Of a stretch of 64,000 bases of DNA, positions 7,670 to 58,967 are shown piece by piece. Made by a program: the position numbers and the translations under genes. This DNA is from an uncultured delta proteobacterium (lineage in GTDB: Bacteria; Myxococcota_A; Polyangia; Polyangiales; Polyangiaceae): contig CAWJCS010000005.1 of assembly GCA_963841435.1 (NCBI GenBank), positions 1,376,001 through 1,440,000 on the forward strand, written 5' to 3'. How positions within the stretch are numbered: position 1 is the first letter of the stretch; every line of letters begins with the position of its first letter. The notes beneath the pieces were generated by a model. That model did not search any database and was not told the DNA's origin. It saw only the letters and a program-made list of their open reading frames with translations.

Positions 7670-10114
7670 GTGAGTCAGAGTGACGCACCCCGGACCACGC
7701 TGGGCGGGCAGCTTGCCTCGACGCCACCCGCCCAAGTGCTGAAGGTCCTCGAGGGCAAAAAGTCAACGGCGCGGGTGTCTTTCGACACCGAGATTGGGCA
7801 CGGTGAGGTCAACCTCGTCGAGGGCAAGATCGTCGACGCGATGCTCGGAGACCTGTTCGGACGCCAGGCGCTGCTGTCGCTGCTCGGCGCGGCCGAGGGT
7901 CATTTCAGCGTCGCTGATCTCGCCAAGGCCGAGCCGCGCCCACCGCTGTGTCCGAGCATCGACCTGCTCTTGTCCGAGCGCGCGAAGCGCATCGCGGATT
8001 GGCGCCGCCTATCCGAGCAGATGCCACCGCTTTCGTCCTCGCTGAAGCTCTCGCCCGAGGGTGTGGAAACGCTCCCCAAAAAGGACCTCAAGCCGGAAGA
8101 GAAGCGCCTCGTGCCTCTGCTCGACGGTCGCCGCAGCATCGCCGACCTCGTCAACGACAGCGAGCTCGACGCCGTCGACGCTTTCGGCATCCTCGTAGGC
8201 TGGCTACGGTCCGGCCTGATCCTAGAGCTTCCGGGGCCCGAGCACCGTCAACCCGAGCCGTTCCAGCCCGCGCGTCCGACGCCGCGCCCCCACCCGGCGG
8301 GCGCTGGGGCCATGTCGCAGCCCCCGTCGGCGGCCGCGCCCGTGCCCGCTGCCAAGCCCGCCGCCGGTGCGGGGCCCGCCCCCGGTGCCGCACCGACGGT
8401 ACCGATGGCCGAGCCCGTAGAGCCGATTTCCTCACGCCGGGGTCGCGGCGGCCGGCGCACCACCGTGATCGGTATGGGCATTCCCGCGCCGGAGCCCGTC
8501 CAGCCACGGCGCGCGGAGGTGCATCGCACCATCTCCGTCGGGTCCCCGAGCGCACCGCCACCCGTCGAGCCGGGGCGCATCCGCACCATCTCCGCCATGC
8601 CCGCGCCCCCTGTAGCGAGCGCCTACTCGCCAGCGGGCCCCAGGTTGTCGCCGGCGGCCGCCGCCGCCGCGGAGCGCAGCGCCGTCGAGCGAGCGCGCGC
8701 CGGCGGAAGGCGCGCCATCGGCCGCTACGAAATCCTCGCGCGCATCGGCCACGGAGGAATGGGGTCCGTCTACCTCTGCCGCATGACGTCGGAAACGGGC
8801 TTCCGGCGCCTGTTCGCGCTCAAGCTGCTCCGCCAGCACCTGCTCGACGATCCGACGGCGGCGACTCGTTTCCTCGAAGAGGCGAGGCTCGCCGGGCTCT
8901 TGCACCACCCGAACGTCGTGAGCGTCCTCGACGCGGGCATCGACGGCGCGCAGCCGTTTCTCGTGATGGACTACGTCGAGGGTGCGAGCCTCAAGCAGCT
9001 CTTGTACGCCCATCCCATCGCCCGGCCCGCGGAGCTCATCGTTCCGATCGTCCTCGATGCGCTCGCCGGCCTGCATGCAGCGCACAACTTGGTCGACGAC
9101 GATGGCGCTCCCCTGAACCTCGTGCACTGCAACGTCTCCCCGGAGAACCTGCTCGTGGGCGTCAACGGCGTGTGCCGGCTCGTCGACTTCGGCGTCGCAC
9201 GCCGCGAATCGACCGGGGGCGACCGCATCGCGCACGGCAAGCCTGCCTACCTGGCGCCGGAGCAGGTGCTGCGCCGTGGCGTCGATCGGCGCGTCAACAT
9301 CTTTGGCATGGGCATCGTCCTCTACAATACGCTCACCGGCACCAGGCTGTTCGACGCCGCGAACGTCGACGAAACCATGAACAACGTCGTCCATCAGCCG
9401 ATCCCTCCGCCGAGCACGATCGGGCTCGGCCCGCCGCCGTGCTTCGACTTCATCTGCATGAAGGCGCTCGAGCGTGACCCGGGACGCCGCTACACGTCCG
9501 CAGAAGACATGGCGAGCGAGCTTCGGCGCGTGGCGCTACGCGAAAATCTCGTCGCGCCGCCGAACGCCATTGCGGCGTGGGTGCGGACTTGCGTCGGTCG
9601 CGAGCTCGACCAGCGGCGCCTGTCCATTCTCGACGCTTCGCGAAACCGCGGAGCGCCGGACGCAGGGCCCGCCCCACGCGCCTCCGTTCCACCGCTGGCG
9701 GACGGATCGACCGTCGTCTTGCGCTCCATCCAGCCACCCCAAGTCGGCGTGCCGAGCGAGCTCCCGTCCGAGCCTCCTCCCGATGGTGAAACGACGGGCA
9801 CCATGCCCCTCGACTTGGGCGCGCGCGCCCGACGCTGGGCGTTAATCGCCGCCGCCGCCATCGCGGCAAGCGCAGTGCTCATCACGCTGCTCTGGCCCGG
9901 GCGGGTCTCGCGGTTCTTCCGGCTCAACACGAGTAGCGTGCGCTCGGACGGCATCGACATCTCGATTGACAGCGCCGCCGTCGACACGGGCAGCGAAGCC
10001 CCTTCACCGAGCGCGAGCGCGCTTCTACCGAGCGGCGACACGCCTCCCGAGCCAGCGCCGAGCGCCGGCTCGGCCACGTCGCAAGGCTCCGACACTTCGG
10101 AGGGCTCCGAGTAA
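7670..10114 (+). CDS. Hanks-type Ser/Thr protein kinase: N-terminal DUF4388/PATAN-like domain, Pro-rich linker, kinase domain, C-terminal TM helix
   Basis: IGHGGMGSVY, FALKLL, RFLEEAR, HCNVSPEN (catalytic loop; the N is probably an error for D), DFG, GKPAYLAPEQ; TM segment WALIAAAAIAASAVLITLLW. Confidence 0.92.
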   Translation: MSQSDAPRTTLGGQLASTPPAQVLKVLEGKKSTARVSFDTEIGHGEVNLVEGKIVDAMLGDLFGRQALLSLLGAAEGHFSVADLAKAEPRPPLCPSIDLLLSERAKRIADWRRLSEQMPPLSSSLKLSPEGVETLPKKDLKPEEKRLVPLLDGRRSIADLVNDSELDAVDAFGILVGWLRSGLILELPGPEHRQPEPFQPARPTPRPHPAGAGAMSQPPSAAAPVPAAKPAAGAGPAPGAAPTVPMAEPVEPISSRRGRGGRRTTVIGMGIPAPEPVQPRRAEVHRTISVGSPSAPPPVEPGRIRTISAMPAPPVASAYSPAGPRLSPAAAAAAERSAVERARAGGRRAIGRYEILARIGHGGMGSVYLCRMTSETGFRRLFALKLLRQHLLDDPTAATRFLEEARLAGLLHHPNVVSVLDAGIDGAQPFLVMDYVEGASLKQLLYAHPIARPAELIVPIVLDALAGLHAAHNLVDDDGAPLNLVHCNVSPENLLVGVNGVCRLVDFGVARRESTGGDRIAHGKPAYLAPEQVLRRGVDRRVNIFGMGIVLYNTLTGTRLFDAANVDETMNNVVHQPIPPPSTIGLGPPPCFDFICMKALERDPGRRYTSAEDMASELRRVALRENLVAPPNAIAAWVRTCVGRELDQRRLSILDASRNRGAPDAGPAPRASVPPLADGSTVVLRSIQPPQVGVPSELPSEPPPDGETTGTMPLDLGARARRWALIAAAAIAASAVLITLLWPGRVSRFFRLNTSSVRSDGIDISIDSAAVDTGSEAPSPSASALLPSGDTPPEPAPSAGSATSQGSDTSEGSE

Positions 10115-12554: not shown

Positions 12555-12724
12555 CGAACGCGCGACGCGAGTCTCGCGTCAGCTCCGCACGCCAGAGAAA
12601 AATCCCTAGGCGTTTTGGGTACTCGGTGCTCCCGCCGCACGTGACAAGCGCCTGGCGCTTGTGCTCTGCTGAGGCGGAAGGTACCCGGGATGGCGGGCAC
12701 CCCTCGGGGATCAAAGGATCTATC

Positions 12725-13699: not shown

Positions 13700-13703
13700 C
13701 ACG

Positions 13704-15695: not shown

Positions 15696-15708
15696 ACTCG
15701 TCGATCCC

Positions 15709-17939: not shown

Positions 17940-18187
17940 CGACTGCTGAACGCATCAGGCAATTCATCGGGACGAACTTCTACGTGCCGGACCCCGCGGC
18001 GCTCAAGGACGATTCCTCGTTCCTCGACCTCGGAGTCATCGACTCGACCGGGGTGCTCGAGGTGGTGGGCTTCCTCGAGCAGGAGTTCGAGGTGAAGGTC
18101 GACGACATGGAAATCGTGCCGGAAAACTTCGACTCGATCGCGAATCTGGTGCGCTTCGTCGAACAGAAGAAGGGCTCAGCGGGATGA
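17936..18187 (+). CDS. Acyl carrier protein
   Basis: 83 aa, acidic; LGVIDSTGVLE phosphopantetheinylation motif; PENFDSI. Confidence 0.93.
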   Translation: MTTAERIRQFIGTNFYVPDPAALKDDSSFLDLGVIDSTGVLEVVGFLEQEFEVKVDDMEIVPENFDSIANLVRFVEQKKGSAG

Positions 18188-18756
18188 AGCTCGGCGCGCT
18201 CGTGCAGCAGCTGAAGAGGGACTACTTCCGGCACGAGGCGTCGCTCAAGAACCCGGCGCTCTGGGCCGTGGCCGTGTACCGCTTCGGCAGGTACACCGAG
18301 GAGCTCGAGCCGGGCCTCGGCCGCGCACTCGCGTCGAAGGCCTACGGCATGATGTTCCTCGGGGTCGAGCTCACGAGCGGCATCGTGTTCAACCGGGAAG
18401 CATTGGTGGGCGAGGATTTCCACCTCATTCACTGGGGTAACACGAAGATCCACCCCGGCGTCGTGATCGGCGACCGCGTAGGCATCATGCACGACGTGAC
18501 GCTCGGCACGTCCATGGAGCGCCCCGGCGTGCCAACGATCGGCAACGACGTGTTCATCGGCACGGGCGCCAAGATCCTCGGACCCGTGCGCGTGGGCGAC
18601 GGAGCGATCATCGCCGCCAATTCGCTCGTCATCACCGACGTGCCTCGGGGGGCCACGGCAATCGGCGTCCCTGCGCGAATGCTCAACTACACGGGGCGCG
18701 GCGACCGGGTGCCCGGCGAGAAGCGCGCCCCGACCGCCGGCGACCGCCCCGCCTAG
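18184..18756 (+). CDS. Hexapeptide-repeat O-acetyltransferase (CysE/WcaB-like)
   Basis: VTLG, PTIGNDVFIGTGAKILGPVRVGDGAIIAANSLV, GVPAR. Confidence 0.88.
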   Translation: MKLGALVQQLKRDYFRHEASLKNPALWAVAVYRFGRYTEELEPGLGRALASKAYGMMFLGVELTSGIVFNREALVGEDFHLIHWGNTKIHPGVVIGDRVGIMHDVTLGTSMERPGVPTIGNDVFIGTGAKILGPVRVGDGAIIAANSLVITDVPRGATAIGVPARMLNYTGRGDRVPGEKRAPTAGDRPA

Positions 18757-21012: not shown

Positions 21013-21087
21013 GCTCGCGCGGGCCTTTATACGCCAAGCGGGCGGGAGTGCGATATGAACGGGCTCGGAAAACCCCGCGACCCGACG

Positions 21088-22083
21088 ATGCAAGGCGAAG
21101 CCTCAAAGAACCCCGCCGAAGGCGAGCGCGCGCGCGTGCTCGTCGTGATCGTCAACTTCCGGACACCGGACCTCACCATCGACAGCTTGCGAAGTCTGGC
21201 TCCCGAAGCGAAAACGGTACCCGGCGTCCGCGTCGTGGTCGTCGAGAACGACTCGGGGGACGACTCGGCCGACGCGTTGCGCCGCGCCATCGACGAAAAC
21301 GGCTGGTCGCACGTCGAGCTCGTGCTCTCGGACAAGAATCGCGGCTTTGCCGGTGGCAACAACCTGGGCATCGCGCACGGCGAGCCCGCCGAGTTCGTGC
21401 TGCTTTTGAACAGCGACACCATCATGCACCGGGGCTGCCTCGAGCGGTGTCTCGCCGTGATGGCCGAGCACCCCGAAGCCGGGGCGATGAGCTGCCGCGT
21501 GCTCAACCGCGACGGCACCATCCAGAACGTGACGCGTCGCTTCCCGACGCCGGTGCTCTCGACGGTGGCAGCCTTCGGTCTGCCCTGGAAATTGCCCGCG
21601 TTCTTCAAGTGGGCCGACGCGGAGGATCTGGATTGGGACCGCGAGGGCGGGGCGCGCAACGTCAACTGGCTCGGCGGCGCTTTTCTTTTCGTGCGTTCGG
21701 CGGCCTTTCCCGAAGGGAAAGTGCGACTCGACGAGGACTTCTTCTTCTACGGCGAGGACGTGGTGTTCAGCCACGTGCTGATGCGCCGTGGCTACACCCG
21801 ACGCTACGACCCGGTCGCGTCAATCGTGCACCTCGGCGGCGCTTCGTCGGATCCGAGCCGCATGCCGAGCAGCGAGCGATCGATTCAGCGCTGGAAGGCG
21901 CGCTACCTCGTGCAGGAGAAGTGCTACGGGCGCGCTGCCGCCAGCTGGTTGCGTGGTGTCAACCTCGTGACGACGAGCGCGCGCATCGTGCGGGCCCTCG
22001 CGCGCCGGCCCGCCGATCGCAACAAGCTCGACCGCCTCGTCGGCCAGCTCGGGACCATCCGCGCCACGCGGGGCCCTGGATGA
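21088..22083 (+). CDS. Glycosyltransferase family 2
   Basis: VIVNF, VVENDSGD, NRGFAGGNN, LLLNSD, DEDFFFYGED. Confidence 0.9.
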   Translation: MQGEASKNPAEGERARVLVVIVNFRTPDLTIDSLRSLAPEAKTVPGVRVVVVENDSGDDSADALRRAIDENGWSHVELVLSDKNRGFAGGNNLGIAHGEPAEFVLLLNSDTIMHRGCLERCLAVMAEHPEAGAMSCRVLNRDGTIQNVTRRFPTPVLSTVAAFGLPWKLPAFFKWADAEDLDWDREGGARNVNWLGGAFLFVRSAAFPEGKVRLDEDFFFYGEDVVFSHVLMRRGYTRRYDPVASIVHLGGASSDPSRMPSSERSIQRWKARYLVQEKCYGRAAASWLRGVNLVTTSARIVRALARRPADRNKLDRLVGQLGTIRATRGPG

Positions 22084-23197
22084 GCGCCGCGGTGCGCGTC
22101 GCCTTCTGCCTGCCGGGACTCCATCGCGTCGCACGAGGCGCCGAGGTGGCCTTCGAGTCCATCGCGGCGGCGCTCGCTCGGCGCGCCGACTACGAGGTCA
22201 CGCTGTTCGGTTCCGGTGAAGCACGGGCGGGCGATCCTTACCGATTCGTGCATGCGGACTGCGTGCCGCGCGAACGCTTCGAGCGCTGGCCGAAGGGCCC
22301 CATCCTGCGCACGGACGGGCACTGGGAGGAGCTCACGTTCTTGCCCGGGTTTCTCCGACGCTTTCGGCCCAGCGACTTCAACGTCGTCGTCACCTGCAGC
22401 TATCCGCTGCAAACGTGGGCGGTGCGCGCACGTCGCGGGCGTCGGCGCCGCCCGCTGCACGTGTTCGTTACGGAGAACGGCGACTGGCCACTTTATCGGA
22501 AGAACTCCGAGTACCTGCTGTTCGACTGCGATGCACTCGTCTGCATCAACCCCGACTATTACGACGCCCACGCTGGGAGCTTTCGCACTGCGCTGATCCC
22601 GAACGGCGTGGACACGACGACGTTCTATCCAGCGGCCGGTGATCGCGCACGCTTCGGGCTCGGACCCGAGGATCGCGTGGTGTTGATGGCGAGCGCGCTC
22701 ATTCCGAGTAAGCGTGTGATGGAGGGCATTTCGGCGGTCGCCAAGCTCACGAGTGCTAGCCTGGTCGTCGCGGGTGACGGCCCGTTGCGCGGCGAGGTCG
22801 AGCGCGCGGGCAACGAGCTCATGGGTGCGAGGTTCCGCCGGCTCCGAGTGCCACGCGAGGACATGCCGGCGCTCTATCGCAGCGCTGATGCCTTCCTCCA
22901 CATGAGCTTGGATGAGCCGTTCGGCAACGTCTACGTGGAGGCGCTCGCGAGCGGTCTTCCCATCGTGACCCACGACCGCCGCGTCACGCGCTGGACGCTC
23001 GGCGCCCACGGCACGTTCGTCGATGCCCAGAACCCGGAGAGCGTCGCGGCCGCCGTCGAACGGGTGCTCGCCGAGCCGGGGTCCAAAGAAGCTCGTGCGG
23101 CCGAGGCGCGGAACCGCTTCGACTGGAAACGCATCGCGGAAAAATACGCCGACTTCTTAACGAAGTGCTCGGCACGGAAGCCTCGGGGGCTGCATAA
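22080..23197 (+). CDS. Glycosyltransferase family 4; a probable 1-nt deletion near 23158 causes read-through into the next gene
   Basis: GAE, IPNGVD, GDGPLR, EPFGNVYVEALASGLP, FDW; the shifted frame reads ..EVLGTEASGAA* with TAA at 23195-23197. Confidence 0.85.
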
Positions 23198-23310
23198 GTG
23201 CGTCCACCGGCGGGAATTGCCCGCGCCCACCACACCGTTTCCCGACGACGCCCCGTGCCCGACCCCGCCAAACCACCAAACGTCCGGGCGGGTCGCCGAG
23301 GCAGCCGAGC

Positions 23311-23342
23311 CGTTTGACAGGGCGCGGCGAAAAGCTAGCCTC
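23311..23342 (+). promoter_or_regulatory. Sigma-70-like promoter upstream of the FHA co-polymerase gene
   Basis: TTGACA (23314-23319), 16-nt spacer, TAGCCT (23336-23341), about 30 nt before ATG 23373. Confidence 0.55.
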
Positions 23343-23372
23343 GGTAGGCTCACGCGCTCGCGGAGCACAGGC

Positions 23373-25274
23373 ATGACGGGACCGCACGAAACCTTGCCGG
23401 AGCCGGAGGGCGAGCCGTCCGAGGCAATCCAAGCCGGAACGGCGGATCTCGTCGCGCGCGCCAATTTGGTGGTGGTGGGCGGCAAGCTCACGGGGCGCGT
23501 CTTCCCGCTGCTGCGCCCCGAGACCAGAGTGGGTCGCACGGCGGCCGCCCACATCCAGCTCGAGGAGCGCGCCATCTCGACCCGGCACGCCACAATCGTC
23601 CAGACGCCCGACGGTCACTCGGTCATCGACCACGGCTCGACGAACGGCACCTTCCTGAACGGTCGCAGGCTCGCACCCAACGAACCGTTCGAGCTCAGCC
23701 CCGGCGATAGCCTCCAGTTCGCGGAGACGGTGCTCACCTACCTCCCCACCAACGCGGATGGGTCGCAGGAGCAGACTCACTACCTTTCAAAGCTGCTCCC
23801 GCAGGTGGCGCAGTCCTCCGCGTTGCAGCTCCCCGACACGGGCCTCCCCGACGCGCAGCTCCTGGTGCAGCTGCTCAAGGCCACCCAGCCCGAGGAGGCG
23901 CCCAAGGAGTCGGTCTCGCTCGAGCAGCGGATTGCGCAGCTCAGGCAGCTGGTCAACATGATCCGGCGCAACTGGCTTCCGCTGTTCTTGTGCGCGGCGC
24001 TGATGGCGCTCGCGGCGGACGCGTCGGTCTTCTTGAAGCCGCCGCAGAGCGTGGCCAAGTGCCGCATTCGCATCACGCCCCCGGCTGGCGAAAAGTACGA
24101 TCCGTACGACAGGGACAACGACAGCTTCACCGTCCCGCTGATCCAGAGCTTCACGAGCCCCACGCTCATCGAGGCGACACTGAAGGCGATGGGCGTCCCT
24201 CATCCCAACAAGTACAAGGTGGATGACACGCTCACCTTCCTCACCTTCAAGCCGACGCAGTACGCGACGTACGAGGGGACCTACACCAACACCGATCCGA
24301 GGTACGCCGTCGAGTTCCTGACCAAGCACGTGGAGGGTTTTCTCAAGACGGAAATCTCGCACGCGCTGCACGTCGCGAAGACCGAGGTGGAGTTTCTCGA
24401 GTCGCGAGTCAAGGAGCGCGAGGCGGAGCTTCGCAAGACCGAGGCGGAGCTCGAGAAGTTCAAGCAGGCGAACATGGTCGGGCTGCCGGAGTTCGCGATC
24501 CAGCACGTGAACTCGCGCGAGGCGCTCTACAAGCAGCGATCCGACCTCGGCGCCCAAATGGCACGCGCCAACCTCGAGCTTGGCGCGGCACGCAAGCGCA
24601 TGTCCGAGCAATCGCCACTGCTCACCAAACGCGCCGAAGGGGCCGCGCCCTACGAGACGGCATTGGTCAACACGAGGCGAAAGCTCGGCGAGGCCCGCGC
24701 GAAAGGCTTCGGCGACCAACACCCCGAGGTGATCGCCCTGATGAAGCAGGAGAAGGAGCTGCAGGATCTGGCCGACAAGGCCCGCAACACGCAGTTCTCC
24801 TCCCTGGATAAAAGCGCCAACCCCGGACTCATCGACGAGAGGCACCGTGTCGCCGATCTCGAGGTCGCCCAGCGCGCCATCGGCGCTCAGCTCGGCGAGG
24901 TGAACGAGCAGCTCAAGCGGCTCGACGGCATCGTCGACAAGCTGCCGGAGGTCGAGGCTCGCTTCGCGGAGCTGACGCGCGCCTACAACGTGAACACCGA
25001 CCTTCACGCGCAGCTGTTCTCCCAGCTGCGCCAGAAGCAGCTGGCGCTGGATCTCGAGCGTAGCTCCGTGATGGCCCGCTACGAGGTTCTCGTGCCGCCC
25101 GAAACGTCGGGCGTGCAGCTGCGCCGCGTGCTCCTGCTTCGTACGCTCATTGGCATCGCCGGCGGGCTCGTGCTCGGCGCCTTCGTCGTGGCCATTCTCG
25201 AGCTTCGCCGCTATCTCGCCACGCGGCGCTCGACGAGCCAGGCCATCGTGCTCAGCACCGTGCGCCCGGACTGA
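23373..25274 (+). CDS. Polysaccharide co-polymerase (Wzz/GumC/Wzc-like) with an N-terminal FHA domain and no kinase domain
   Basis: FHA: VGR..ISTRHA..GSTNGTFLNG..LSPGD; TM1 WLPLFLCAALMALAA; long coiled coil with GDQHPEVIAL and LPEVEARFAELTRAY; TM2 LLLRTLIGIAGGLVLGAFVVAILE. Confidence 0.85.
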   Translation: MTGPHETLPEPEGEPSEAIQAGTADLVARANLVVVGGKLTGRVFPLLRPETRVGRTAAAHIQLEERAISTRHATIVQTPDGHSVIDHGSTNGTFLNGRRLAPNEPFELSPGDSLQFAETVLTYLPTNADGSQEQTHYLSKLLPQVAQSSALQLPDTGLPDAQLLVQLLKATQPEEAPKESVSLEQRIAQLRQLVNMIRRNWLPLFLCAALMALAADASVFLKPPQSVAKCRIRITPPAGEKYDPYDRDNDSFTVPLIQSFTSPTLIEATLKAMGVPHPNKYKVDDTLTFLTFKPTQYATYEGTYTNTDPRYAVEFLTKHVEGFLKTEISHALHVAKTEVEFLESRVKEREAELRKTEAELEKFKQANMVGLPEFAIQHVNSREALYKQRSDLGAQMARANLELGAARKRMSEQSPLLTKRAEGAAPYETALVNTRRKLGEARAKGFGDQHPEVIALMKQEKELQDLADKARNTQFSSLDKSANPGLIDERHRVADLEVAQRAIGAQLGEVNEQLKRLDGIVDKLPEVEARFAELTRAYNVNTDLHAQLFSQLRQKQLALDLERSSVMARYEVLVPPETSGVQLRRVLLLRTLIGIAGGLVLGAFVVAILELRRYLATRRSTSQAIVLSTVRPD

Positions 25275-25280
25275 CCGAGC

Positions 25281-26738
25281 TCAGCGCGAGGTCACGTTGC
25301 CCTGCAAGGCGGCCGCCTGGGAGAGGCGCCGTCGGACCCAGAGCACGACCGCCAGGCGTGCAACCTCGGCGCGTGTCAGGCGCGCGCCCTTCTCGCCGGC
25401 GAGCCCTTGCGAAAGACCGGCGAGCGTGCCCGCGAGGAAAATGGGCAGGTCGTTGAAGCCGCCGTTCGGCAGCAGATCCAGCGTGTAGACGATGGAGATC
25501 ATGCCGACGCCGGCGAGCAGGCGCTGATGCTCCCGGGGCACGCGAGGCAGGCTCCGGAGCGCCATGCCGAGCGGCAAGACGAGCAGACCGAAGTACGTGA
25601 TGTACTCGGCGAACCCACCGCGTCCGAGGATGGCGATCCAAGCGCCGTCGATCACGGAGATGTTTTTGCCCTCGGAGGTCCAAATGTGACCCCGCGCGAA
25701 GTAGCTCCAGCCAAAGAGCGGTCGCTCCCAAAACTTGTCGAGCAGCATGTCCTCGTTCGTGAAGCGGAAGCCGAGCGACGCACCGCGCTCCGGGCTCAGG
25801 CCGTAGAAGAAGTCGCAAATGTCTTGCGCGGGGAAGATCCCGGTCAGGCGCAGGACGGGATAGAGAAAGACGATGATCCCCAACCCCGCGGCAAGCCGCA
25901 GCTGCGCGCGCGGCGTCAATACCCACATCAGGGGCACGAGCACTATCCCGTAAACCAGGGCTCCGAGGCTGTTCAAGAGCGCCAAGATCACCGTCACGTA
26001 GATCGCTAGCGCGGTCGGGTGGAGCCAGCGCACCGCGCGGACACGCGCCCTGACGAGTGCCCAGGAGGCAAGCGCTGACGCGCAGACGAACAGGGCCAGC
26101 GCGAGCCCGTGATGCATGAAGACTTGCGGCCGCCACCCGTCCGCTCGCTTCACCTGTCCCCAGGCGTGCTGGCGGTACCCGTAAATCCAGGAGTGGAGCT
26201 GCGGGCTCATCTTCAGCTCGAACAGAATGAGCGGGGAGTAGATGAGAAACGCGATGACGAGCGCCTTGAGCAGATCGCGAGCGTCGCTGGAGGTTCGAAA
26301 CATGGTCCGCCCGACGAGGAACGGGACGAACGTGTGGAGCGCCATGCTCAGACTGAACGACACGAGATCGTAAGGGCCCTGACCCTGGATGGTCTTCGGA
26401 CCGTAGTGCAGCGTGTCCTGATTCGTGAAGATGGTCCCGGCGAGCGCCACCAGCGAGAGCAGCATCAGTCGATCGATCCCGTGGCCGGGTTTCGCGCTTC
26501 GGAACTTCGGTCGTGCCCCGAGATACACGCCGCAAAAGATGCAGAGCGCGGGTAGCGTGAGCTTGTCGAGGGTCGGAATCAGCGGCGCATCGAATTGCAG
26601 AAGCTCGGGCAGGAACAGCACCGTGCCCAGGAGGACGGCGAGCACCGCGCGGGGGGCCGGCAGTTGCGAAAACGCGAGCATGGTCGCCGGGACCACCAGC
26701 CACATCATCACGTACGCGAGGATTGTGGGGTGCTGCAC
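25281..26738 (-). CDS. Wzy/O-antigen ligase-like polytopic membrane protein (probable polymerase)
   Basis: Many TM helices; WRPQVFMHHGL, SLGFRF..E, ERPLFGW, DGAWIAILGRGG; located next to the co-polymerase. Confidence 0.78.
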   Translation of the reverse strand: MQHPTILAYVMMWLVVPATMLAFSQLPAPRAVLAVLLGTVLFLPELLQFDAPLIPTLDKLTLPALCIFCGVYLGARPKFRSAKPGHGIDRLMLLSLVALAGTIFTNQDTLHYGPKTIQGQGPYDLVSFSLSMALHTFVPFLVGRTMFRTSSDARDLLKALVIAFLIYSPLILFELKMSPQLHSWIYGYRQHAWGQVKRADGWRPQVFMHHGLALALFVCASALASWALVRARVRAVRWLHPTALAIYVTVILALLNSLGALVYGIVLVPLMWVLTPRAQLRLAAGLGIIVFLYPVLRLTGIFPAQDICDFFYGLSPERGASLGFRFTNEDMLLDKFWERPLFGWSYFARGHIWTSEGKNISVIDGAWIAILGRGGFAEYITYFGLLVLPLGMALRSLPRVPREHQRLLAGVGMISIVYTLDLLPNGGFNDLPIFLAGTLAGLSQGLAGEKGARLTRAEVARLAVVLWVRRRLSQAAALQGNVTSR

Positions 26739-34318: not shown

Positions 34319-35869
34319 ATGCTCGGCCGCCCCGTGCTCGGACAAACGACTTCGACAGCGCCGCCAGCCAGCGACAGGACGAGCAAGCACAAGCTGACCA
34401 GGGATCTCAAGCGCGGATCCTTCTGGGTGCTCGCCGGCTACGGGGGCGGGCAGGCCCTTCGCCTCGGCAGCAACCTGGTGTTGTGGCGACTGCTCTACCC
34501 CGAAGCGTTCGGTCTGATGGCGCTCGTGAACACGTTCCTACAGGGGCTGCACATGTTCTCGGACGTCGGAATCGGCCCGAGCATCGTCCAGAGCCCACGA
34601 GGTGACGAGCCCGAGTACCTGAACACGGCCTGGACCATTCAGGTGGCACGAAGTCTCGTGCTTTTCACGATCGCCTGCGTCGCAGCCCGCGCCGTGGCGC
34701 ATTTCTACGACGCTCCCCCGCTCGCCACGCTCATCCCGCTGGTCGCGCTGGTGACCATCATCTCCGGGTTCAATTCCACACGCCTCGTGACGGCGAAGCG
34801 CCACGTGGCGCTGGGCCGCGCAACGGCCATCGATCTGATCTCGCAGGCATCGGGCATCGCCATCGTGATCCCATGGGCGTACGTCACCCGCGACGTGATG
34901 GCGTTCGCCGTCGGCGCCGTCGCGTCGGCGATCGTCAAGCTCGCTCTGAGCCACACCTTCCTACCGGGCGTGCAGAATCGCTTCACCTGGGATCGACCGA
35001 GCGCACACGCCCTGCTCCGCTTCGGGCGCTGGGTCTTTCTGAGCACGCTCTTGACGTTCGCGGTGCTGCAGTCGGACCGACTGATCTTCGGCAAGCTCGT
35101 CTCGCTCCAGACGCTCGGGGTCTACAGCATCGCCACGGTGTGGGCGACGATCCCCGTCACGGTCGTCTCGCAGGTCGCAAGCTCCGTGATCTTTCCCTTG
35201 CTCAGCCGCGTGCACAACGCCAGAGGCGACTTCGCCGGCGCGCTCAAGCAGACGCGCACGACCTGGCTCGTACTGGCGGGCTGGATGGTGGCGTGCCTCG
35301 GAGCAACCGGGCCGACGCTCATCAGGTTCCTCTACGACCAGCGGGCCAAGGACGCCGGATGGATTCTCCAGTTTCTCTCCGTCGGGACCTGGTTCGCGAG
35401 CCTCGAGATGCCCAACCGAATGGCGCTCCTGGCGCGCGGCCGTCCACTGTGGATGTCCGTGGACAGCAGTGCCAAGCTCGTGGCCATGGTGGCCCTGATT
35501 CCGACCGGCTACCTCCAATTCGGGTTTCCGGGCGCGGTCGCGGGGTTCGCGGGCGCAGAGCTGTTTTCCTATCTCGCCTCGCTCGTCGGGCTCGCGCGTG
35601 CAGGCGTCTCTGGGCTGCTGGTCAACGCGTCGCTTTCCGCCCTGGTGCTCGCAACGACCGTCGCGGGCGATTTCTTGCGCTGGCCGGTGCGACAGCTGGT
35701 CCAGCGCGTGGGCCTGCCCTACCGGGCGACCGCCTTCGTCGAGGGGATGCTGCTCGTGCTCGCCATCTCGAGCGTCTGGGCTGCCGCCTACTTCGGCTAC
35801 CGGCGCTTCTCACGCACACCGACCTCGAGCCCGACGACGGCGTCCTTCCCCCCTTCGGTGAGCCCCTGA
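34319..35869 (+). CDS. wzx: Wzx oligosaccharide flippase
   Basis: RLLYPEAFGLMA, FSDVGIG, NTAWTIQ, SDRLIFGKL...LGVYSIA, FPLLSR. Confidence 0.88.
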   Translation: MLGRPVLGQTTSTAPPASDRTSKHKLTRDLKRGSFWVLAGYGGGQALRLGSNLVLWRLLYPEAFGLMALVNTFLQGLHMFSDVGIGPSIVQSPRGDEPEYLNTAWTIQVARSLVLFTIACVAARAVAHFYDAPPLATLIPLVALVTIISGFNSTRLVTAKRHVALGRATAIDLISQASGIAIVIPWAYVTRDVMAFAVGAVASAIVKLALSHTFLPGVQNRFTWDRPSAHALLRFGRWVFLSTLLTFAVLQSDRLIFGKLVSLQTLGVYSIATVWATIPVTVVSQVASSVIFPLLSRVHNARGDFAGALKQTRTTWLVLAGWMVACLGATGPTLIRFLYDQRAKDAGWILQFLSVGTWFASLEMPNRMALLARGRPLWMSVDSSAKLVAMVALIPTGYLQFGFPGAVAGFAGAELFSYLASLVGLARAGVSGLLVNASLSALVLATTVAGDFLRWPVRQLVQRVGLPYRATAFVEGMLLVLAISSVWAAAYFGYRRFSRTPTSSPTTASFPPSVSP

Positions 35870-39148: not shown

Positions 39149-39151
39149 ACG

Positions 39152-39811
39152 CTACTCGACGACGATCGCATCGCCGTCACGCAGCCGGAACCGCACGCTC
39201 GCGGCCTCGGCAGCGACCAGGTCCGAGTAGCGAAAGCGCACGCGAGGGCTGGACCTGTCGTGTCGAATCACGAAAATCGAGTCCTCGTCGGCAAATGTGC
39301 TGAGCCCGCCCGCCCTCGCGAGCACGTCGAGCACGCCCTCGTCACCGGTCAACGCGTACCTGCCGGCCGTCTTCACCTCCCCGAGCACGCTCACGGTCGG
39401 AGGGGGGCGCACGGCGATGAGGATCGTGACACGGGGGTCGGCGAGCACGCCCCGCAGCCGGTTCGTGACTTCGGCCGCCAGCGCGTCCGCGGTCCTGCCG
39501 GCGGTATTGAAACGTCCAGCGGTCGGCAAGACGACTTCGCCGCCCGGTCGCACGTCGAACTCGCCCGACATCTCCAACTGATTCGCGACCACCACCTGCA
39601 GCTTGTCACCGGGGAGGATCACCTTGTCTTCGTTGGGATCCGGGGGCGGCAGCTGACTGGCCCAGACGTAGGTGCGTGACGTGCCGCAAGCGAGCGCGAG
39701 ACCCGCCGCGAGAACGAGCGATGAGCGCCGCGTCACGCGCGATGGGGCGGCATGCGCGGCGCCACGGACGGCGACTCCACGCGGCACGTTGCGGGAGCGA
39801 TGCGTTGTCAT
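39152..39811 (-). CDS. Short OPX (Wza-like) polysaccharide export lipoprotein
   Basis: Lipobox LALAC; ILPGDKLQV, VRPGGEVVLP, VSVLGEV..AG.Y, AGGLS.FAD; ends LRDGDAIVVE. Confidence 0.9.
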   Translation of the reverse strand: MTTHRSRNVPRGVAVRGAAHAAPSRVTRRSSLVLAAGLALACGTSRTYVWASQLPPPDPNEDKVILPGDKLQVVVANQLEMSGEFDVRPGGEVVLPTAGRFNTAGRTADALAAEVTNRLRGVLADPRVTILIAVRPPPTVSVLGEVKTAGRYALTGDEGVLDVLARAGGLSTFADEDSIFVIRHDRSSPRVRFRYSDLVAAEAASVRFRLRDGDAIVVE

Positions 39812-52945: not shown

Positions 52946-54589
52946 TCAGCTATTGGCGACGGAGAGCACCACGCCGAGGCGCTCCCCGGAAAAGGGCGCC
53001 AACGTTCGCGCCGACTCAGGCACGTTTTGTGGGTACGCGGCCACGACGCCATCCACCACGTCGCTCACGGCTCGGCACGCGACGTCTTCGGACAACGGGG
53101 GAGCGTTGACGATGATCACGTCGTAGTAAGGGCGCAGGGCAGCAACGCAATCTTCGAAGTGTGTCGAGAGGATCAGCTCGGGCGCCGTACGCGCCGACGG
53201 CAAGACGTGCAATGCCGGCGAGCACTTGAGAACGTACCAGTGCCCGTCGGCCGAACCGTCCACGCGGGCGGATAGCTGGGTTGCGAAGTCCGTTGCGGGC
53301 AGCACCACCAAGCCCAGCGCCGTCCCGAGACTGGGCTTGGCGAGATCCGCCTCGACGAGGAGCACTCTCGATGAATCGTCCTCGGCGAACGCGGCCGCGA
53401 GGCCCGCGCTGATTTCAGCCTTGGCCGCCGCGACAGCCGGCGTTGCCGTGACCCCGACCACGAAGCAATCCCCTTGAGCTAGGGCGCGCAGCTGCTCGCG
53501 GAGGGCATAGTACCGCTGCCGCCCGGGCACCGCCTCGGGACGCCAGGGCGTCGGGTAGGCCATCACGGGCGATTCGCCGGGAGGCGGCCCGCTCCCCGGT
53601 GCCCCGCTCGAGGGTCGAGCTTCGGCGCGTGGCGGCGGCGGCCCCGAGTCGAGCTCCGGGGAAGGCGGCACGGCGGGCTCGCCACCGGCCAGTCCGTCCA
53701 CGCTCAGCACCTGCGGCGCCTCCGCGACAGAAGACGGCGACAACGAGGGACTCGGCGGGGGCCGCGAGACCGCCGTGCCGGCACGTCGTGGCTCGAGCGA
53801 CGCTCGCCTGCGCGAAGCCGAGCGCTCGGCCCGCGGCGAACCCGCTGGCAAGAGCGCCACGATGAGCGAAAGCGCCAGCCCGATGCCGTAGAGCAGGGAG
53901 CGCTGCGGCTCGGACGGCGGCTGCTGCAGGCGGGCCTCGATGACCGGAGGCGTCGTCGGCTTGGTCGCGGATGGGGCCGCGGACGGCGGCGGCAACGCTT
54001 CGATGAGCTTCTGCAACTCGGGGAGCCCCGTCGTCGTCACCCCCTGGCGCGCGCGAGCCACCGATGCGAGGGAGCTGTCGATCTCGGCCAGCCGCCGCTT
54101 GAGCACGAGCGCCCGCGAGGGACGTGCCCGCTCGGAGTCGGCGAACGGATTGTCCGAGCCGGACGCGTCGCCACCACCTGGCCTCAGCCCATCGAGCTCG
54201 GCCTGGACGCGTTGGCGTTCCTGCTCGAGCACGACGCGATCGGTCGACGCGCTCTTCTGCGCGGGCTCGGCGGAGCGCGCGAGGTCCGGATGGCTCACGA
54301 GGTAGCTCACGAGCTGATCCTCGGCCTCCGCGGCGGGCGCGGGCTCGGCAGCCCGCGGGGCCGCGAGCGCCTCTGCACGCACGAAAGTGCGCTGGGCCGC
54401 GGCTCTGCACAGCTCCTCGGCGCGCGCCGCCGTGCGGTCCCGTCCGACGATGGGCACGCCATCGCCGCCCACGAGTGGAACGACCGCGCGCGCTGCGAAG
54501 ATTTGCGGCGACGTTTGGGCGAACGCGGCGAAAGCGCCGAAGGCGACCACCGCCCTGAGCACCCGCACGGCGACCCCCGCAGCCGTCAC
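52946..54589 (-). CDS. Wzc-like membrane protein with a degenerate BY-kinase-like C-terminal domain
   Basis: Two hydrophobic segments flank a coiled region, then a Pro/Ser linker, then FVVGVTATPAVAAAKAE, VLLVEADL..P, LHVLP, YDVIIV(N)APP. Confidence 0.75.
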   Translation of the reverse strand: MTAAGVAVRVLRAVVAFGAFAAFAQTSPQIFAARAVVPLVGGDGVPIVGRDRTAARAEELCRAAAQRTFVRAEALAAPRAAEPAPAAEAEDQLVSYLVSHPDLARSAEPAQKSASTDRVVLEQERQRVQAELDGLRPGGGDASGSDNPFADSERARPSRALVLKRRLAEIDSSLASVARARQGVTTTGLPELQKLIEALPPPSAAPSATKPTTPPVIEARLQQPPSEPQRSLLYGIGLALSLIVALLPAGSPRAERSASRRRASLEPRRAGTAVSRPPPSPSLSPSSVAEAPQVLSVDGLAGGEPAVPPSPELDSGPPPPRAEARPSSGAPGSGPPPGESPVMAYPTPWRPEAVPGRQRYYALREQLRALAQGDCFVVGVTATPAVAAAKAEISAGLAAAFAEDDSSRVLLVEADLAKPSLGTALGLVVLPATDFATQLSARVDGSADGHWYVLKCSPALHVLPSARTAPELILSTHFEDCVAALRPYYDVIIVNAPPLSEDVACRAVSDVVDGVVAAYPQNVPESARTLAPFSGERLGVVLSVANS

Positions 54590-56436
54590 GTTCCTGTCCC
54601 GCCCAGCACCACGGGCACCGTGCGCGCGAGGACGTAGAGGTCGAGCCAGGGCGACCAGTTGCGCACGTACTCAACGTCCATCTGCAGGCGCTGCTCGAAG
54701 GTGGATTCGTTGCGCCACGTCACCTGCCAGATGCCGGTGATGCCCGGCTTGACGCGCAAGATGATGGCTTCCTTCTGCTCCATGTCCGGGATCTCACGCT
54801 CGAGATACGGGCGCGGTCCGACGAGGCTCATCTCCCCGACCAGCACGTTCCAAAGCTGGGGCAGCTCGTCGAGGCTGTATTTGCGGAGAAAACGGCCGAT
54901 GCGCGTGACGCGAGGATCGTTGTTCAGCTTGTGAAACTGCTCGTATTCGACGGCGAGCATGGGATCGCGCTCGAGGATGCCGGCGAGGCGCTGCTCCGCA
55001 TCCTCGAACATGGTGCGGAATTTGAGCGCCGCGAAGCGGATCCCGTCCTGTCCGAGCCGCTTCTGCCGGTGAAACACCGGGCCCTTGGAGTCCAGCCGGA
55101 TCACGAACGCGAGGAGCATGAGGAGCGGCCACGTGATCAACAGCCCGATACTGGTAAGCGCCAGATCCATGGCGCGCTTGGCCGCCCGCGGACCGCGCAA
55201 CAAGAGCTGGCGCTGCACTTCGATGCCAAGCGCACCGCCGAGATAGCGCGTCGGCGCGCCGAAGTGCGTCAGGTTGAACAGGTCCGGAATGACCAGCACG
55301 TTGTGGTAGCTGTCCGCGAAACGCTCGATCACGCCGAGCATCGTGGACGCGTCCATTTCGGGCATGGCGAGCACGGCCGTCCGCACCTTGAGCCGCTGCG
55401 ACAGCGCGGGGGCAAGCTCCAGCCCGCCCACGATCGGAACGCCCTCGACCTCCGAGAACTGCTCGAGCGCGGATCGCTCGGACGGTGATTCCGCGTCCTC
55501 GGCATCGAACTCGCGGACGGGCTCGATCACGATGTCGTTTTCGCCCCAGGTGGCGCGCACCGTGCCCTGGCGCGCCGGATTGTCGTCGAGGATCGCGACG
55601 GGCTTCAGACCAAGCTGCGGACGCGCCTGCAGCATGGTGACGACCGCGCGCCCCACCTTGCCGGCGCCCATCACCACCACGGGCTGACCCCACCAGGGAG
55701 TGCGCGCCAGCGACGAGCGCAGAATGCCGCGCAACGTCGGCACGAGCACGATGGCGATCAACCACCCAATCGCCCAAGCCTCGTGGGAGACCGCGTAGAA
55801 CGAGACGACGCGCGTCAGCACGACGGCCATCCAGCAGCCGGCGTAGACGAGCGTGATCGAAGCCACCGAGCTGCGGATCTCGTCCGGCGGGCTCGGTGGC
55901 GTGACCGCGTACAGGCGAGACGCCGAGAACGCGGCCAGGCACAGGGGAACCACGGCGGCCAGGACGTAGATGGCGGCGTTCGACAGTCGATCGTGTGCGA
56001 CCAAGAACCAGAGCACGGCGGTGCCGAGCCCGAGCGACACGAGGTCGGACAGGACGAGCACGAGGCTGACGAGCCTTGGGCGGCAGCTCACCTGCAGCCA
56101 GCCAATCGACGGGTTCTCGCGAGCGCGCCGCGCGATGCTGCGGGCCTTGCCGCGAACGCGCGCGGTGTGCACTTGCTCGATCAGCGCTTCGGCGACGGCT
56201 CTCGCGTCGCACGCGCCGAGCCGACGCAGGATGGCGCCGATGTGCCCGCCGTTCTCGGCCTGGACGTGCAGCGCGTGACGGAGCTGTTCGGGCGTGATGA
56301 CACCCTTCCGGAGCAGCACCTGCCCGAGCTCGTTGTCTCGCCTCCGCCGACGGCGGTAAAAGGCGGGACTACTGTCCCTCGACTCCCGGGGCGCGTCGGG
56401 GGGCTGCACGAGCGCCGATGCCCGCCGCTTGCTCAC
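54586..56436 (-). CDS. Initiating polyprenyl-phosphate phosphoglycosyltransferase (WbaP/WcaJ-like) with an N-terminal MshEN-like extension
   Basis: [57 protein letters not shown]. Confidence 0.93.
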
Positions 56437-56911: not shown

Positions 56912-58967
56912 ATGAGCCCCGCCCCGCCCCCACCGAGCTTCATGAAGTCGCTGCTCCGGGCAGTCGCCGCGGGTGCGGTCGTGTTCGCGGGCTTTCTTGG
57001 CTACGGCTACAGGGATCCTCCCGTTTTCGAGACGGGGGGCGAGCTCCGCGTCAGCGGTGCCCTGCCGAGCGAGGGGATGAATGCCGTCGTTGACCGGCTC
57101 GAGCGGACCATTTTCGATTCCGCGTTGCTTTCCCGCCTAGCGGCGGAAGCAGGCCCGCAGAGCGGGCAGGTCGCGGGGCTCAGGGTCGCGAGCGGCATCC
57201 GCTTCGAGCCTCGTCCGCCGGACCGAGTTCGCATCGTCTGCCGCAACCCCGACCCCGAGCGCCTCAAGTTCCTGTGCGACGCCGTCCTCACGGCCGTCAC
57301 CAAACGGGGCGCTGTGGCCGTCGCCGGAACCCAGTCGTCCTCCACGGCGCTCACCTCGAGCGTCGCCGATTCTGGCCGCCTACGCGCGCGCGCACCCGGA
57401 GCTCTTCCTGAGCGCCCGAAAGCCCCCGCCAAAGCCGGAATCCCTGGAGGAGCTGCGCCAAAAGACGGATGCCGTGCGCTCGGCGCGAGCGTCCAGCGTC
57501 CCGACGATCCCGACGCTGTCGTTCGAGGTGGCGATCCCAGTGGGCGGCGCCAAACCGCTCGGGGTGCCGCGCTCTGCCGTGCTGTTTGCGGGATTGTTCG
57601 GGGCGCTCGCGACGGCCTTCATCACCCTCATGGGCGAGTTCTTCCTGCTCCGGCGAGCTCAGGCGGCCGCGGCTCGCGAGAGCTTCTTGCTCGACGACGA
57701 GGACGACGAGCTCTCGAAGCCTTTTGCGCTCGCCCCCGCCCCGGAAACACAGCCGCCCCTCGCACTGCCACCCCGTTCAGTCCCGCCGCCGGCGGCGGCT
57801 GCCACTCCGGCCTCCGCGCCTCCTCCCGACACGTCAGACCCGCAGGTCGAATTCTCGGTCCCCCCGCCTGGCGTGACGGAGCCGACTTCTTCGGCGCCGC
57901 CGGGCGCCCCGCCCCGACCCGGCTCCTCGGCGCCGCCCGGCGCGCTCGCATCACCGATTCTACGCCGCGCACCAACCACGCCCGTCGTCGCCGTGCCGCC
58001 CGGCGGCGGGTCGTTCGTGCCACCATCCGCGCCGCCGGTCCCGGCCGTTGCCCCCACGGCAAGTGGCGAAAGTCCGGCTGAGGGACCCTCGACGATGCTT
58101 CCGCCGGCCAAGTCGAGCGACTCGGGTTTCCACGCCACGGTGACGTACGACGCGACCAACCTCGATGCGCGCCACCGAGAGCGCGGGGTACCCGTCACGC
58201 GCACCACGCAAATGCTCGGCTCACCGCTCTCGCCCGAGGCTCAACCCGTTTCGCGACCCTCCGGGCGAGTCCGCCAGGGCTCCGCCACGACTCGCTACAG
58301 CTTCGTGAGCACGCCACCACCAGCCGGGGGCGAGCCGGTGCGACCGCACGACGTGGGTCCGGATTGGAGCCCCGATCCGAGCATCGATCCCGCACCTTGC
58401 AGGCCGCTTTGTCGCGAGCTCTTCGCCTTCGGTGTCGAGCACTGTTTTGTGGTGGGCGTGACGGCGGTGCCCGGCCTCGATCGAGACAAGGCCGAGTTTT
58501 CCGCCGCGCTCGCGCTCGCGCTGTCCGCGACCGGTCACGCGCGCGTGTTGCTCGTCGAGGGTGACCTCGATGCCCCGCAACAACACACGTTCATGCGCGC
58601 CGAGATGCCCGAGGGGGAGAGCTTCTCGCGCCAGCTACAGGCGCACATGACGCGTCAGGCGGGCGAGCATTGGAGCGTGCTGCGCTGCACGAAGTCGCTG
58701 CACGTGCTCGTGGACGGCGAGGAGCACACGCCGGGGCTCATCCTCTCCCGCACGTTCGAGGAGTGCGTGCGGGCGCTCCGCGCGTACTACGACTTCATCG
58801 TGCTCGACGGTCCGACGGGCGCACGGGAATCGGAGTGCCGCGCGCTCGACGGCGTCATCGACGGGCTCATCGTGGTGTGCACCGAGGAAACACGAGCCAC
58901 CATCCCCGAAACGTCGCGCTACTTCACCACGAAGCGATTTTCCAAGGCGATCCGCGCAACGCGCTGA
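56912..58967 (+). CDS. Second Wzc-like membrane protein with a degenerate BY-kinase-like domain; apparent frameshift at ~57370
   Basis: TM1 in ORF 56912; removing one T at GATTC restores LAAYARAHPEL (paralog has LVSYLVSHPDL) and joins ORF 57474 with TM2, Pro-rich linker, FVVGVTAVPGLDRDKAE, VLLVEGDL, YDFIVLDGP. Confidence 0.75.

Follow-up and report, generated by a model that had tools for sequence, protein, structure and literature searches.

PCP-2-type polysaccharide co-polymerases (PCPs) are master regulators of Wzx/Wzy-dependent capsule and exopolysaccharide export, and the accepted mode of their control is a tyrosine-kinase cycle. In Wzc, the oligomeric state depends on a cycle of tyrosine phosphorylation (PMC8285477, PMC12004946). 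A second arrangement consists of a kinase-less PCP-2 protein together with a pseudokinase of the bacterial tyrosine (BY) kinase type, i.e., EpsV/EcpK in Myxococcus xanthus and HfsA/HfsB in Caulobacter, and it was only in 2025 that a phosphorylation-independent subfamily of such pseudokinases was proposed, with the trigger unknown (PMC12004946). On the side of Ser/Thr phosphorylation, PknF and Rv1747 of Mycobacterium tuberculosis are encoded in one operon, the kinase positively regulates the FHA-bearing exporter, and the phospho-Thr sites of Rv1747 are in an unstructured linker next to its FHA domains (PMC3138270, PMC8339232). GarA, OdhI, and DgcB are FHA proteins whose phospho-Thr ligand is located either on their own chain or on that of a partner (PDB 6i2p, 4qcj, 6hc1; PMC6733907). 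In this work, we describe a gene that combines elements of these systems. It is located at positions 23373 to 25274 of a 64,000-nucleotide stretch with a G+C content of about 68% (contig CAWJCS010000005.1 of assembly GCA_963841435.1, an uncultured delta proteobacterium of the Polyangiaceae; the whole stretch is called the window below), and its product, named FHA-PCP here, has an FHA domain in front of a Wzc-like co-polymerase part. We consider it probable, though by no means certain, that FHA-PCP is a PCP-2-type co-polymerase of a Wzx/Wzy-dependent exopolysaccharide pathway in which the FHA domain replaces the tyrosine kinase, and that it is controlled by a partner Hanks-type kinase and T-x-x-L motifs.

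The FHA domain is recognized by Pfam PF00498 at residues 51-116 of the 633-residue protein (61.2 bits; cut-off, 20.7), and the residues of the phosphothreonine (pThr) pocket can be read directly in the translation: VGR (G54 R55), STRH (S69, H72), and TNGT (N91 G92 T93). G54 R55, S69, H72, and N91 G92 are invariant across a 27-sequence alignment of close relatives, and among 108 diverse members of the FHA-PCP family R55 is retained in 97, S69 in 96, H72 in 106, and N91 in 94; the copy in the window keeps every family-invariant residue. The AlphaFold2 model, for which 27 family members were used, averages a pLDDT of 76.9, with about 80-85 in the FHA domain, 80-94 in the PCP part, and values below 50 in the linker (residues 128-180), which is disordered. 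Residues about 24-128 of this model superpose on DgcB, GarA, and OdhI with Z scores of 18-19 and root-mean-square deviations (rmsd) of 0.9-2.2 Å over 94-101 residues (VIA-align), and the best structural matches of this part, i.e., DgcB, GarA, OdhI, EmbR, and FhaA, are all true pThr readers.

Hydropathy places two membrane helices (TM1 and TM2) at residues 201-222 and 585-613, with about 360 residues in between and a 20-residue tail after the second one. In a Foldseek search of the PDB, the FHA-PCP model retrieves Wzc at the first rank (9r68_I, E 4.4e-10), followed by pThr-reading FHA domains. VIA-align places model residues 188-613 onto residues 17-452 of Wzc (7nhr_C), thus from TM1 to TM2, with a Z score of 16.1 and an rmsd of 2.9 Å over 212 residues; please note that chance Z scores for helical folds can reach about 13, and that the matched range and the topology weigh more than the score. 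A sequence profile of the PCP part finds PslE (9v75_A) in the PDB at E 7e-4. The curated sequence families all stay below their cut-offs: Pfam Wzz gives 16.5 bits (cut-off, 25.5), the NCBIfam EpsV model matches at E 0.0038 only, and TIGR03007, the chain length determinant of the XrtA system and the best NCBIfam model for the C-terminal half, gives 91.8 bits at residues 301-624, below its cut-off of 278.85. No BY-kinase domain was found in the protein by Pfam or NCBIfam, and the chain stops 20 residues past TM2. An earlier note on this DNA had described an FHA domain with intact pThr residues, a Wzz/Wzc-like part with two transmembrane helices, and an end shortly after TM2 without a BY kinase, and all three descriptions stand. 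The hidden Markov model (HMM) and structure check that it had proposed agree on the FHA domain; the co-polymerase part is borne out by the fold but not by the cut-offs of the curated HMMs. Judged from its predicted fold, FHA-PCP is a Wzc-like PCP-2-type protein that has an FHA domain where its relatives carry a tyrosine kinase.

Compared with Wzc of Escherichia coli (PCP-2a; PDB 7nhr, 9r62, 9r68), FHA-PCP has the same order of TM1, an alpha/beta base with a helical hairpin, and TM2, and it is likewise encoded in a Wzx/Wzy locus with an OPX gene; it differs in the absence of the C-terminal BY kinase and Tyr cluster that define PCP-2a, in the presence of the N-terminal FHA domain, and in a sequence likeness that is marginal. 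In the PCP-2b arrangement (CapA/CapB) a separate intact BY kinase is encoded nearby, and the window has only two degenerate domains of this type. EpsV/EcpK is similar in that the PCP-2 protein lacks a BY kinase, the host is apparently a myxobacterium, the OPX protein is of the short EpsY type, and pseudokinase-like genes are present in the locus. However, EpsV has no FHA domain, and FHA, threonine, and Hanks kinase have 0 occurrences in PMC12004946; the pseudokinase-like proteins of the window, unlike EcpK and HfsB, are membrane-anchored and were not detected in the distant FHA-PCP loci.

Among the curated families, the highest score is that of TIGR03007, the XrtA/PEP-CTERM chain length determinant, which works with a separate tyrosine autokinase (TIGR03018), and an exosortase of the TIGR04162 type and PEP-CTERM-associated enzymes are encoded in the window; in contrast, the score is far below the cut-off, the locus has no intact TIGR03018 kinase, and the loci of the relatives have no exosortase block. 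The inner-ring proteins of the type III secretion system (T3SS), SctD/YscD/PrgH, are likewise built from an FHA-like domain in the cytoplasm, a single membrane helix, and a ring-forming oligomerization domain in the periplasm, and Pfam Yop-YscD_cpl (PF16697) matches FHA-PCP with 36 bits (cut-off, 33.2); FHA-PCP differs from them in having no T3SS context, a conserved pThr pocket, and a Wzc-like periplasmic fold. With GarA, OdhI, and DgcB it shares the best FHA fold matches and a conserved Thr motif that lies beyond the FHA fold in the same polypeptide, but these are soluble regulators or a diguanylate cyclase and have the motif at the N-terminus, whereas that of FHA-PCP is between the FHA domain and the membrane helix. 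The closest working analogue is PknF/Rv1747, where the genes of a kinase and of an envelope exporter with FHA domains are likewise paired; Rv1747 belongs to the ABC transporters, has two FHA domains and no PCP part, and is non-homologous outside the FHA domain.

The architecture is recurrent. An exhaustive family profile search (HMMER) produced 746 representatives at E below 1e-30, clustered at 50% identity; among the best 150 of them, 108 have an FHA domain followed by a PCP part, 33 are PCP only (some of them fragments), and nine are multi-FHA proteins, so that at this identity level the family comprises no fewer than 108 clusters. In the source records its members are called "hypothetical protein" or [quoted passage not shown]; the nearest ESM Atlas cluster (54 members, 96% with FHA, commonest in Myxococcota) is also named "hypothetical protein". 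Among genomes the distribution is sporadic: of the 24 other genomes of the genus, 3 carry a full-length match, the 16 genomes from other families of the order gave 0, and 3 were positive among 400 genomes sampled over the phylum, with only three candidates scored per genome. One named relative with a full-length FHA-PCP is a metagenome-assembled genome (MAG) of the Nannocystaceae, found in a genome contig scan dominated by FHA-only matches; for the metagenome scan, the query was rebuilt from the PCP part alone. The statement of the earlier note that it knew of no characterized FHA-co-polymerase fusion agrees with our full-text literature search for FHA with PCP, Wzc, Wzz, Wzx, or Wzy, which found no description of such a protein within a scope that leaves out most subscription journals and supplements; PMC12419801 names FHA and Wzz, in unrelated contexts only. 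FHA-PCP is an uncharacterized variant of PCP-2 regulation, and its mechanism is what we infer below.

Synteny was examined in 18 distinct FHA-PCP loci at 26-50% identity, i.e., the window and loci from same-genus genomes, from relatives in the phylum, from metagenome contigs, and from one MAG (numbered L003 to L123, G005 being a relative), which were scanned with HMMs built from sequences gathered in this analysis; 17 loci were in the context scan. The recurring core consists of a membrane Hanks kinase, FHA-PCP, a beta-barrel gene, and a short OPX gene, with Wzy, Wzx, a phosphoglycosyl transferase (PGT), and WecG nearby. In 10 of the 18 loci (L011, identical to L092, L003, L093, L094, L095, L096, L099, L103, L107, and L123), FHA-PCP has a kinase of one clade directly upstream on its own strand, and in L121 and L122 one gene, a PGT, separates the two. 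Chance adjacency of a kinase is about 2%, because there are about 127 Pkinase matches in the 7.8-Mb genome. Members of the clade are non-RD kinases with the catalytic loop H-C-D-[VI]-S-P-E-N and an intact Gly-loop, Lys of the VAIK-type motif, DFG, and APE; DUF4388 is N-terminal in most of the members listed, and a membrane helix follows the kinase domain in 99 of the homologues examined. Tandem paralogues of the partner kinase precede FHA-PCP in two loci, two of them in L094 (472-3642) and three in L099 (294-6841). The window kinase is a full-length orthologue (46% identity) of the kinase adjacent to FHA-PCP in G005 and is 13.9 kb upstream of FHA-PCP, with an exosortase/acyl block and two GT2 genes in between.

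The context is that of polysaccharide synthesis. The window is a large polysaccharide locus with further glycosyltransferases, deacetylases, and sugar-nucleotide genes. The gene next to FHA-PCP, called Wzy-like in the earlier note, encodes a polytopic membrane protein and is orthologous to the Wzy-like gene of G005 (46.5% identity); its match to Wzy_C is weak and stays below the cut-off (E 0.0044, 17.3 bits). By Pfam annotation, the distant loci L096, L103, and L121 contain neither a second PCP nor a BY kinase or a PP2C phosphatase, and it therefore appears that FHA-PCP is the sole co-polymerase of those pathways.

The pattern pT-x-x-[LI] is the classical FHA ligand. In FHA-PCP such a pattern is found shortly after the FHA domain (EQTHYL), and T135 and L138 are invariant in 27 close relatives; over the 108 diverse members, T135 is retained in 76 and L138 in 51, and the neighboring columns peak at 14-32. 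FHA-PCP has, like GarA and OdhI, a conserved Thr motif that is part of the chain but not of the FHA fold, and T135-x-x-L138 is a candidate phospho-acceptor. A similar motif is present on the kinase, 10-20 residues ahead of its membrane helix (9800-9811 in the window). T[IVM]x[LIVF] occurs within 27 residues before the helix in 70 of 99 kinase homologues compared with 3.4 in shuffles, and across positions 628 to 706 of an alignment of 26 kinases no residue but T689 is invariant (residue numbers are counted from GTG 7736; T689 is codon 9800-9802 and N466, discussed below, is codon 9131-9133). Within gene pairs the PCP and kinase motifs are alike, e.g., ATIRLP/RTVIIP in L107 and EQTQYL/SQTVFL in G005. 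The idea of the earlier note that EQTHYL could allow an intramolecular switch as in GarA is consistent with the conserved motif on the same chain; a pThr motif may be bound within one chain or between protomers, and a similar second motif is on the kinase. A complex prediction of FHA residues 20-130 with kinase residues 650-700 gave a score of 0.00 in both runs with no controls folded, and it speaks neither for nor against binding.

FHA-PCP has the domain build and the predicted folds of an FHA protein and of a PCP-2 protein, a conserved pocket, a polysaccharide context, and a pairing with one clade of membrane Hanks kinase. The earlier suggestion that polymerization or export is controlled here by Ser/Thr phosphorylation gains support, at the level of sequence comparison, from the kinase being adjacent in 10 of 18 loci and one gene off in two, from the conserved T-x-x-L island, and from the orthologous kinase in the window. 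In the mechanism that we propose, the partner kinase would phosphorylate the Thr of near-membrane T-x-x-L motifs, i.e., T689 on itself and T135 in the PCP linker, and the FHA domain would read one or both of the phospho-motifs. The resulting pThr-FHA binding would tie the PCP to the kinase or link neighboring PCP protomers, and the oligomeric, active state of the co-polymerase may be set in this way, much as that of Wzc is by its cycle of Tyr phosphorylation. A more specific version, which we offer tentatively and hold to be possible rather than expected, is a pThr-FHA "daisy chain": the kinase would write pThr on itself and on the PCP linker, the FHA domains of the ring would bind the motif of the neighbor or of the kinase, and this would clock the assembly and disassembly of the ring and, with it, polymerization and export. 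In the window genome, phosphorylation, if any, would come from another of roughly 120 kinases; alternatively, the switch would be locked.

Several observations weigh against control by the partner kinase and the T-x-x-L motifs, or against the PCP-2 assignment on which it is built. T135 is missing in 32 of the 108 members (5 of them have Ser), and L138 is kept in less than half of them. The curated PCP families remain below cut-off, as described above. L098 is without this kinase although 9.5 kb are available upstream and 10 kb downstream; altogether no kinase is found in the available flanks of 5 of the 18 loci, and in L012, L101, L106, and L100 the upstream DNA does not exceed 2.1 kb. The kinase clade is atypical even in the relatives, with HCDVSPEN in place of HRDLKPEN. 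The window kinase, which retains the Gly-loop, the VAIK-type Lys, DFG, and APE, reads HCNVSPEN, with N466 at the position of the catalytic Asp of the HRD-type loop; Asp is found there in 100 of 101 database homologues and in 13 of 14 locus kinases. No other of the 101 homologues shares N466, not even relatives at 74-79% identity (101 of 120 listed homologues matched the search pattern and 19 did not). The arrangement in the window genome is a derived one, with the kinase 13.9 kb off and the catalytic Asp replaced by Asn. Annotation of four loci showed no PP2C phosphatase. Finally, the BY-pseudokinase-like genes of the close clade could supply a phosphorylation-independent scaffold, as proposed for EcpK/EpsV (PMC12004946).

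The extent of the protein itself allows two readings. The reading frame is open from 21048 to 25274 without an in-frame stop between a GT4 glycosyltransferase gene (from 22080) and ATG 23373, third-position GC indicates genuine coding in this frame from near 22080-22230 to 25274, and the genome's own gene call is a 1064-amino acid GT4-FHA-PCP protein. The organism might thus make a genuine fusion of 1064 residues instead of 633, which would be compatible with every functional reading discussed here; both GT4 and FHA are cytoplasmic, so that the fusion is topologically possible, and GT4 homologues are apparently on the same contigs as FHA-PCP genes (equal sizes 21168, 55856, 39722, and 28127). 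However, all 120 GT4 homologues among the matches listed are stand-alone proteins (350-414 residues, median 371, up to 74% identity), and the 20 that were aligned stop 6-29 residues past the YADF[LF] motif, whereas the window frame continues for 69 more codons. All 25 non-self full-length FHA-PCP relatives are 626-658 residues long and start at a Met equivalent to ATG 23373, a GGAG is found 7 nt ahead of this ATG, and the third-position GC of the 69 linking codons (0.78-0.80) is weaker than that of the flanks (0.83-0.93). Because of the stand-alone GT4 homologues, the lengths and equivalent Met of the relatives, and the GGAG before the ATG, the 633-residue protein from 23373 is, by family comparison, the normal gene of the FHA-PCP family, and we regard a genuine fusion in this organism as unlikely, if deserving of attention. 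An assembly error at the GT4/FHA junction is possible. None of the soil-metagenome contigs from three runs of one study, one of which contains part of the stretch, covers 23130-23350, and no RNA data set with the stretch is listed. A search of 46 same-genus genomes at E 1e-40 gave no GT4 orthologue. As the cause of the lost GT4 stop, a homopolymer frameshift at AAAAA 23140-23144 was considered and rejected, as the frame keeps the C-terminal ...RIAEKYADFL of the family. A promoter/terminator scan of 22900-25600 gave no signal above shuffled background.

The FHA domain could also read another phosphoprotein, i.e., the S/T/P-rich linkers of the pseudokinase-like proteins, the PGT, or Wzx, with a pseudokinase scaffold as in EcpK/EpsV and Ser/Thr phosphorylation timing its binding and release. 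The window has two such pseudokinase-like genes, with orthologues in G005 and L093; in both proteins the Walker A, A', and B motifs are degenerate and a Tyr cluster is missing, and a profile of their domains finds CapB (4jmp_A) at E 5e-8. The single canonical Wzc-like BY kinase of the genome, with intact Walker motifs and a Tyr cluster, is on another contig. The EpsV/EcpK type is marked by a partner pseudokinase that binds to the PCP at its C-terminal tail. A conserved C-terminal tail motif of the PCP is confined to the clade that carries the pseudokinase-like genes, and the EcpK paper proposes cycles of binding and unbinding whose trigger is unknown (PMC12004946). Against this stands that an HMM scan did not detect pseudokinase-like genes in the distant loci L095, L096, L103, L107, L121-L123, L098, and L012, i.e., among loci where the kinase and the T-x-x-L motifs occur, and that the AlphaFold2 model of the pseudokinase-like protein (mean pLDDT 43, from an alignment of four sequences) is unusable. 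We find this explanation improbable, and a pseudokinase scaffold is a rival or an add-on to the FHA-PCP module, not part of its core.

Alternatively, the window copy might be part of a system that has been rearranged, has partly decayed, and has ceased to work in the way of the ancestral module. The displaced kinase with its unique N466 and the missing stop codon of GT4 would fit this, as would the beta-barrel partner, which was not found in the 95%-complete genome with a single G005 query; yet one query without a match does not show the absence of a gene, and the open frames of FHA-PCP (with the invariant residues kept), Wzy-like, Wzx, OPX, and PGT are intact throughout. Decay has, in our estimate, a low probability, and the oddities of the window may be explained either by a switch served by another kinase, or by a locked or decaying one, or in part by assembly errors. 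Phospho-independent FHA-like domains usually lose their phosphate-binding residues. A purely structural, ring-building FHA domain as in SctD/YscD, with the kinase serving another purpose, would agree with the PF16697 match, with the SctD-like order of FHA, membrane helix, and periplasmic domain, and with an intact FHA-PCP beside a kinase that looks catalytically impaired, but we judge it very unlikely in view of phosphate-binding residues kept in 94-106 of 108 members, of top structural matches that are true pThr readers, and of T-x-x-L motifs conserved on both PCP and kinase. Control of FHA-PCP through its partner kinase and the T-x-x-L motifs remains the reading that we prefer.

The coordinates of these genes and of further ones are collected in Table 1.

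Table 1. Features of the FHA-PCP locus (positions in the window, except where another locus is named)
Feature	Position	Strand	Remarks
Cognate membrane Hanks kinase	7670..10114	+	DUF4388, kinase domain, juxtamembrane T689-M-P-L, TM; 46% identity to G005 kinase
GT4 glycosyltransferase	22080..23165	+	same frame as FHA-PCP, without own stop; Pfam Glycos_transf_1 74.9 bits
Stop-free codons (69) from GT4 domain end to ATG 23373	23166..23372	+	GGAG at 23362-23365
FHA-PCP gene	23373..25274	+	633 amino acids plus stop; FHA, linker, TM1, periplasmic Wzc-like domain, TM2, 20-residue tail
FHA domain	23454..23753	+	residues about 28-127; Pfam, family HMM, alignment, fold match
T135-H-Y-L138 island in linker	23775..23786	+	candidate phospho-acceptor and FHA ligand; alignment conservation
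TM1	23973..24038	+	residues 201-222; hydropathy and helix in AlphaFold2 model
Periplasmic domain	24039..25124	+	residues 223-584; alpha/beta base and long helical hairpins, Wzc-like
TM2 and 20-residue cytoplasmic tail	25125..25271	+	TM2 at residues 585-613; without kinase domain
Wzy-like polytopic membrane protein	25281..26738	-	convergent with FHA-PCP, directly downstream
Wzx-type flippase	34319..35869	+	Polysacc_synt_3 174 bits
Short OPX protein (EpsY-like)	39152..39736	-	Poly_export and SLBB; Pfam/NCBIfam domain matches
BY-pseudokinase-like membrane protein	52946..54589	-	TIGR03018 35.9 bits; degenerate BY-kinase-like C-terminal domain
WbaP-type priming PGT	54586..56436	-	TIGR03022 444.5 bits
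Second BY-pseudokinase-like membrane protein (paralogue)	57474..58967	+	TIGR03018 28.5 bits
Beta-barrel candidate, examples	L011 11895-13109; L003 3231-4466	-	equivalents in 11 further loci

In 13 of 17 loci, a candidate beta-barrel gene of about 400-440 codons, with no Pfam family and a weak OMP_b-brl match, is found between FHA-PCP and the short OPX gene; it probably encodes the beta-barrel half of a composite OPX/beta-barrel translocon. The PGT of the window has an N-terminal MshEN-like motif for cyclic di-GMP (c-di-GMP; NF053729, 49.7 bits; cut-off, 38), which hints at c-di-GMP control of polysaccharide initiation. A small PilZ-domain gene is present in FHA-PCP loci of the Nannocystaceae-type clade (L012, 7157-7492, +; L121, 3698-4036, -), and these two loci have no kinase directly upstream of FHA-PCP.

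The block at 11013-18756, which separates kinase and FHA-PCP in the window genome only and is absent from the FHA-PCP loci of the relatives, encodes an exosortase E/CAAX-protease fusion (TIGR04162, 201.7 bits), an NAD synthase, an asparagine-synthase-type amidotransferase, an acyl-CoA ligase (TIGR03098-like), a methyltransferase, an acyl carrier protein, and an acetyltransferase. Two LPG_synthase_TM-family genes and a PMT_2-type glycosyltransferase gene are within the polysaccharide locus (30612-31568, +; 31631-32596, -; 28789-30333, -). A 616-residue open reading frame at 37453-39303 (+) has zero family matches and a coding-like composition over roughly its first 1.1 kb; its 3' part overlaps the OPX gene and a differently framed 140-residue open reading frame, and because of this overlap a frameshift or a miscalled end is possible.

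If the control that we propose is true, it would be a third control logic for PCP-2 proteins, besides the tyrosine-kinase cycle and the pseudokinase. The pThr-FHA daisy chain, if it exists, would suggest how kinase-less PCP-2 proteins cycle without tyrosine phosphorylation. R55, S69, and T135 of FHA-PCP and T689 of the kinase are residues at which these ideas can be tested, and a positive outcome would link the very large Ser/Thr kinase repertoires of Myxococcota to the output of surface polymers.

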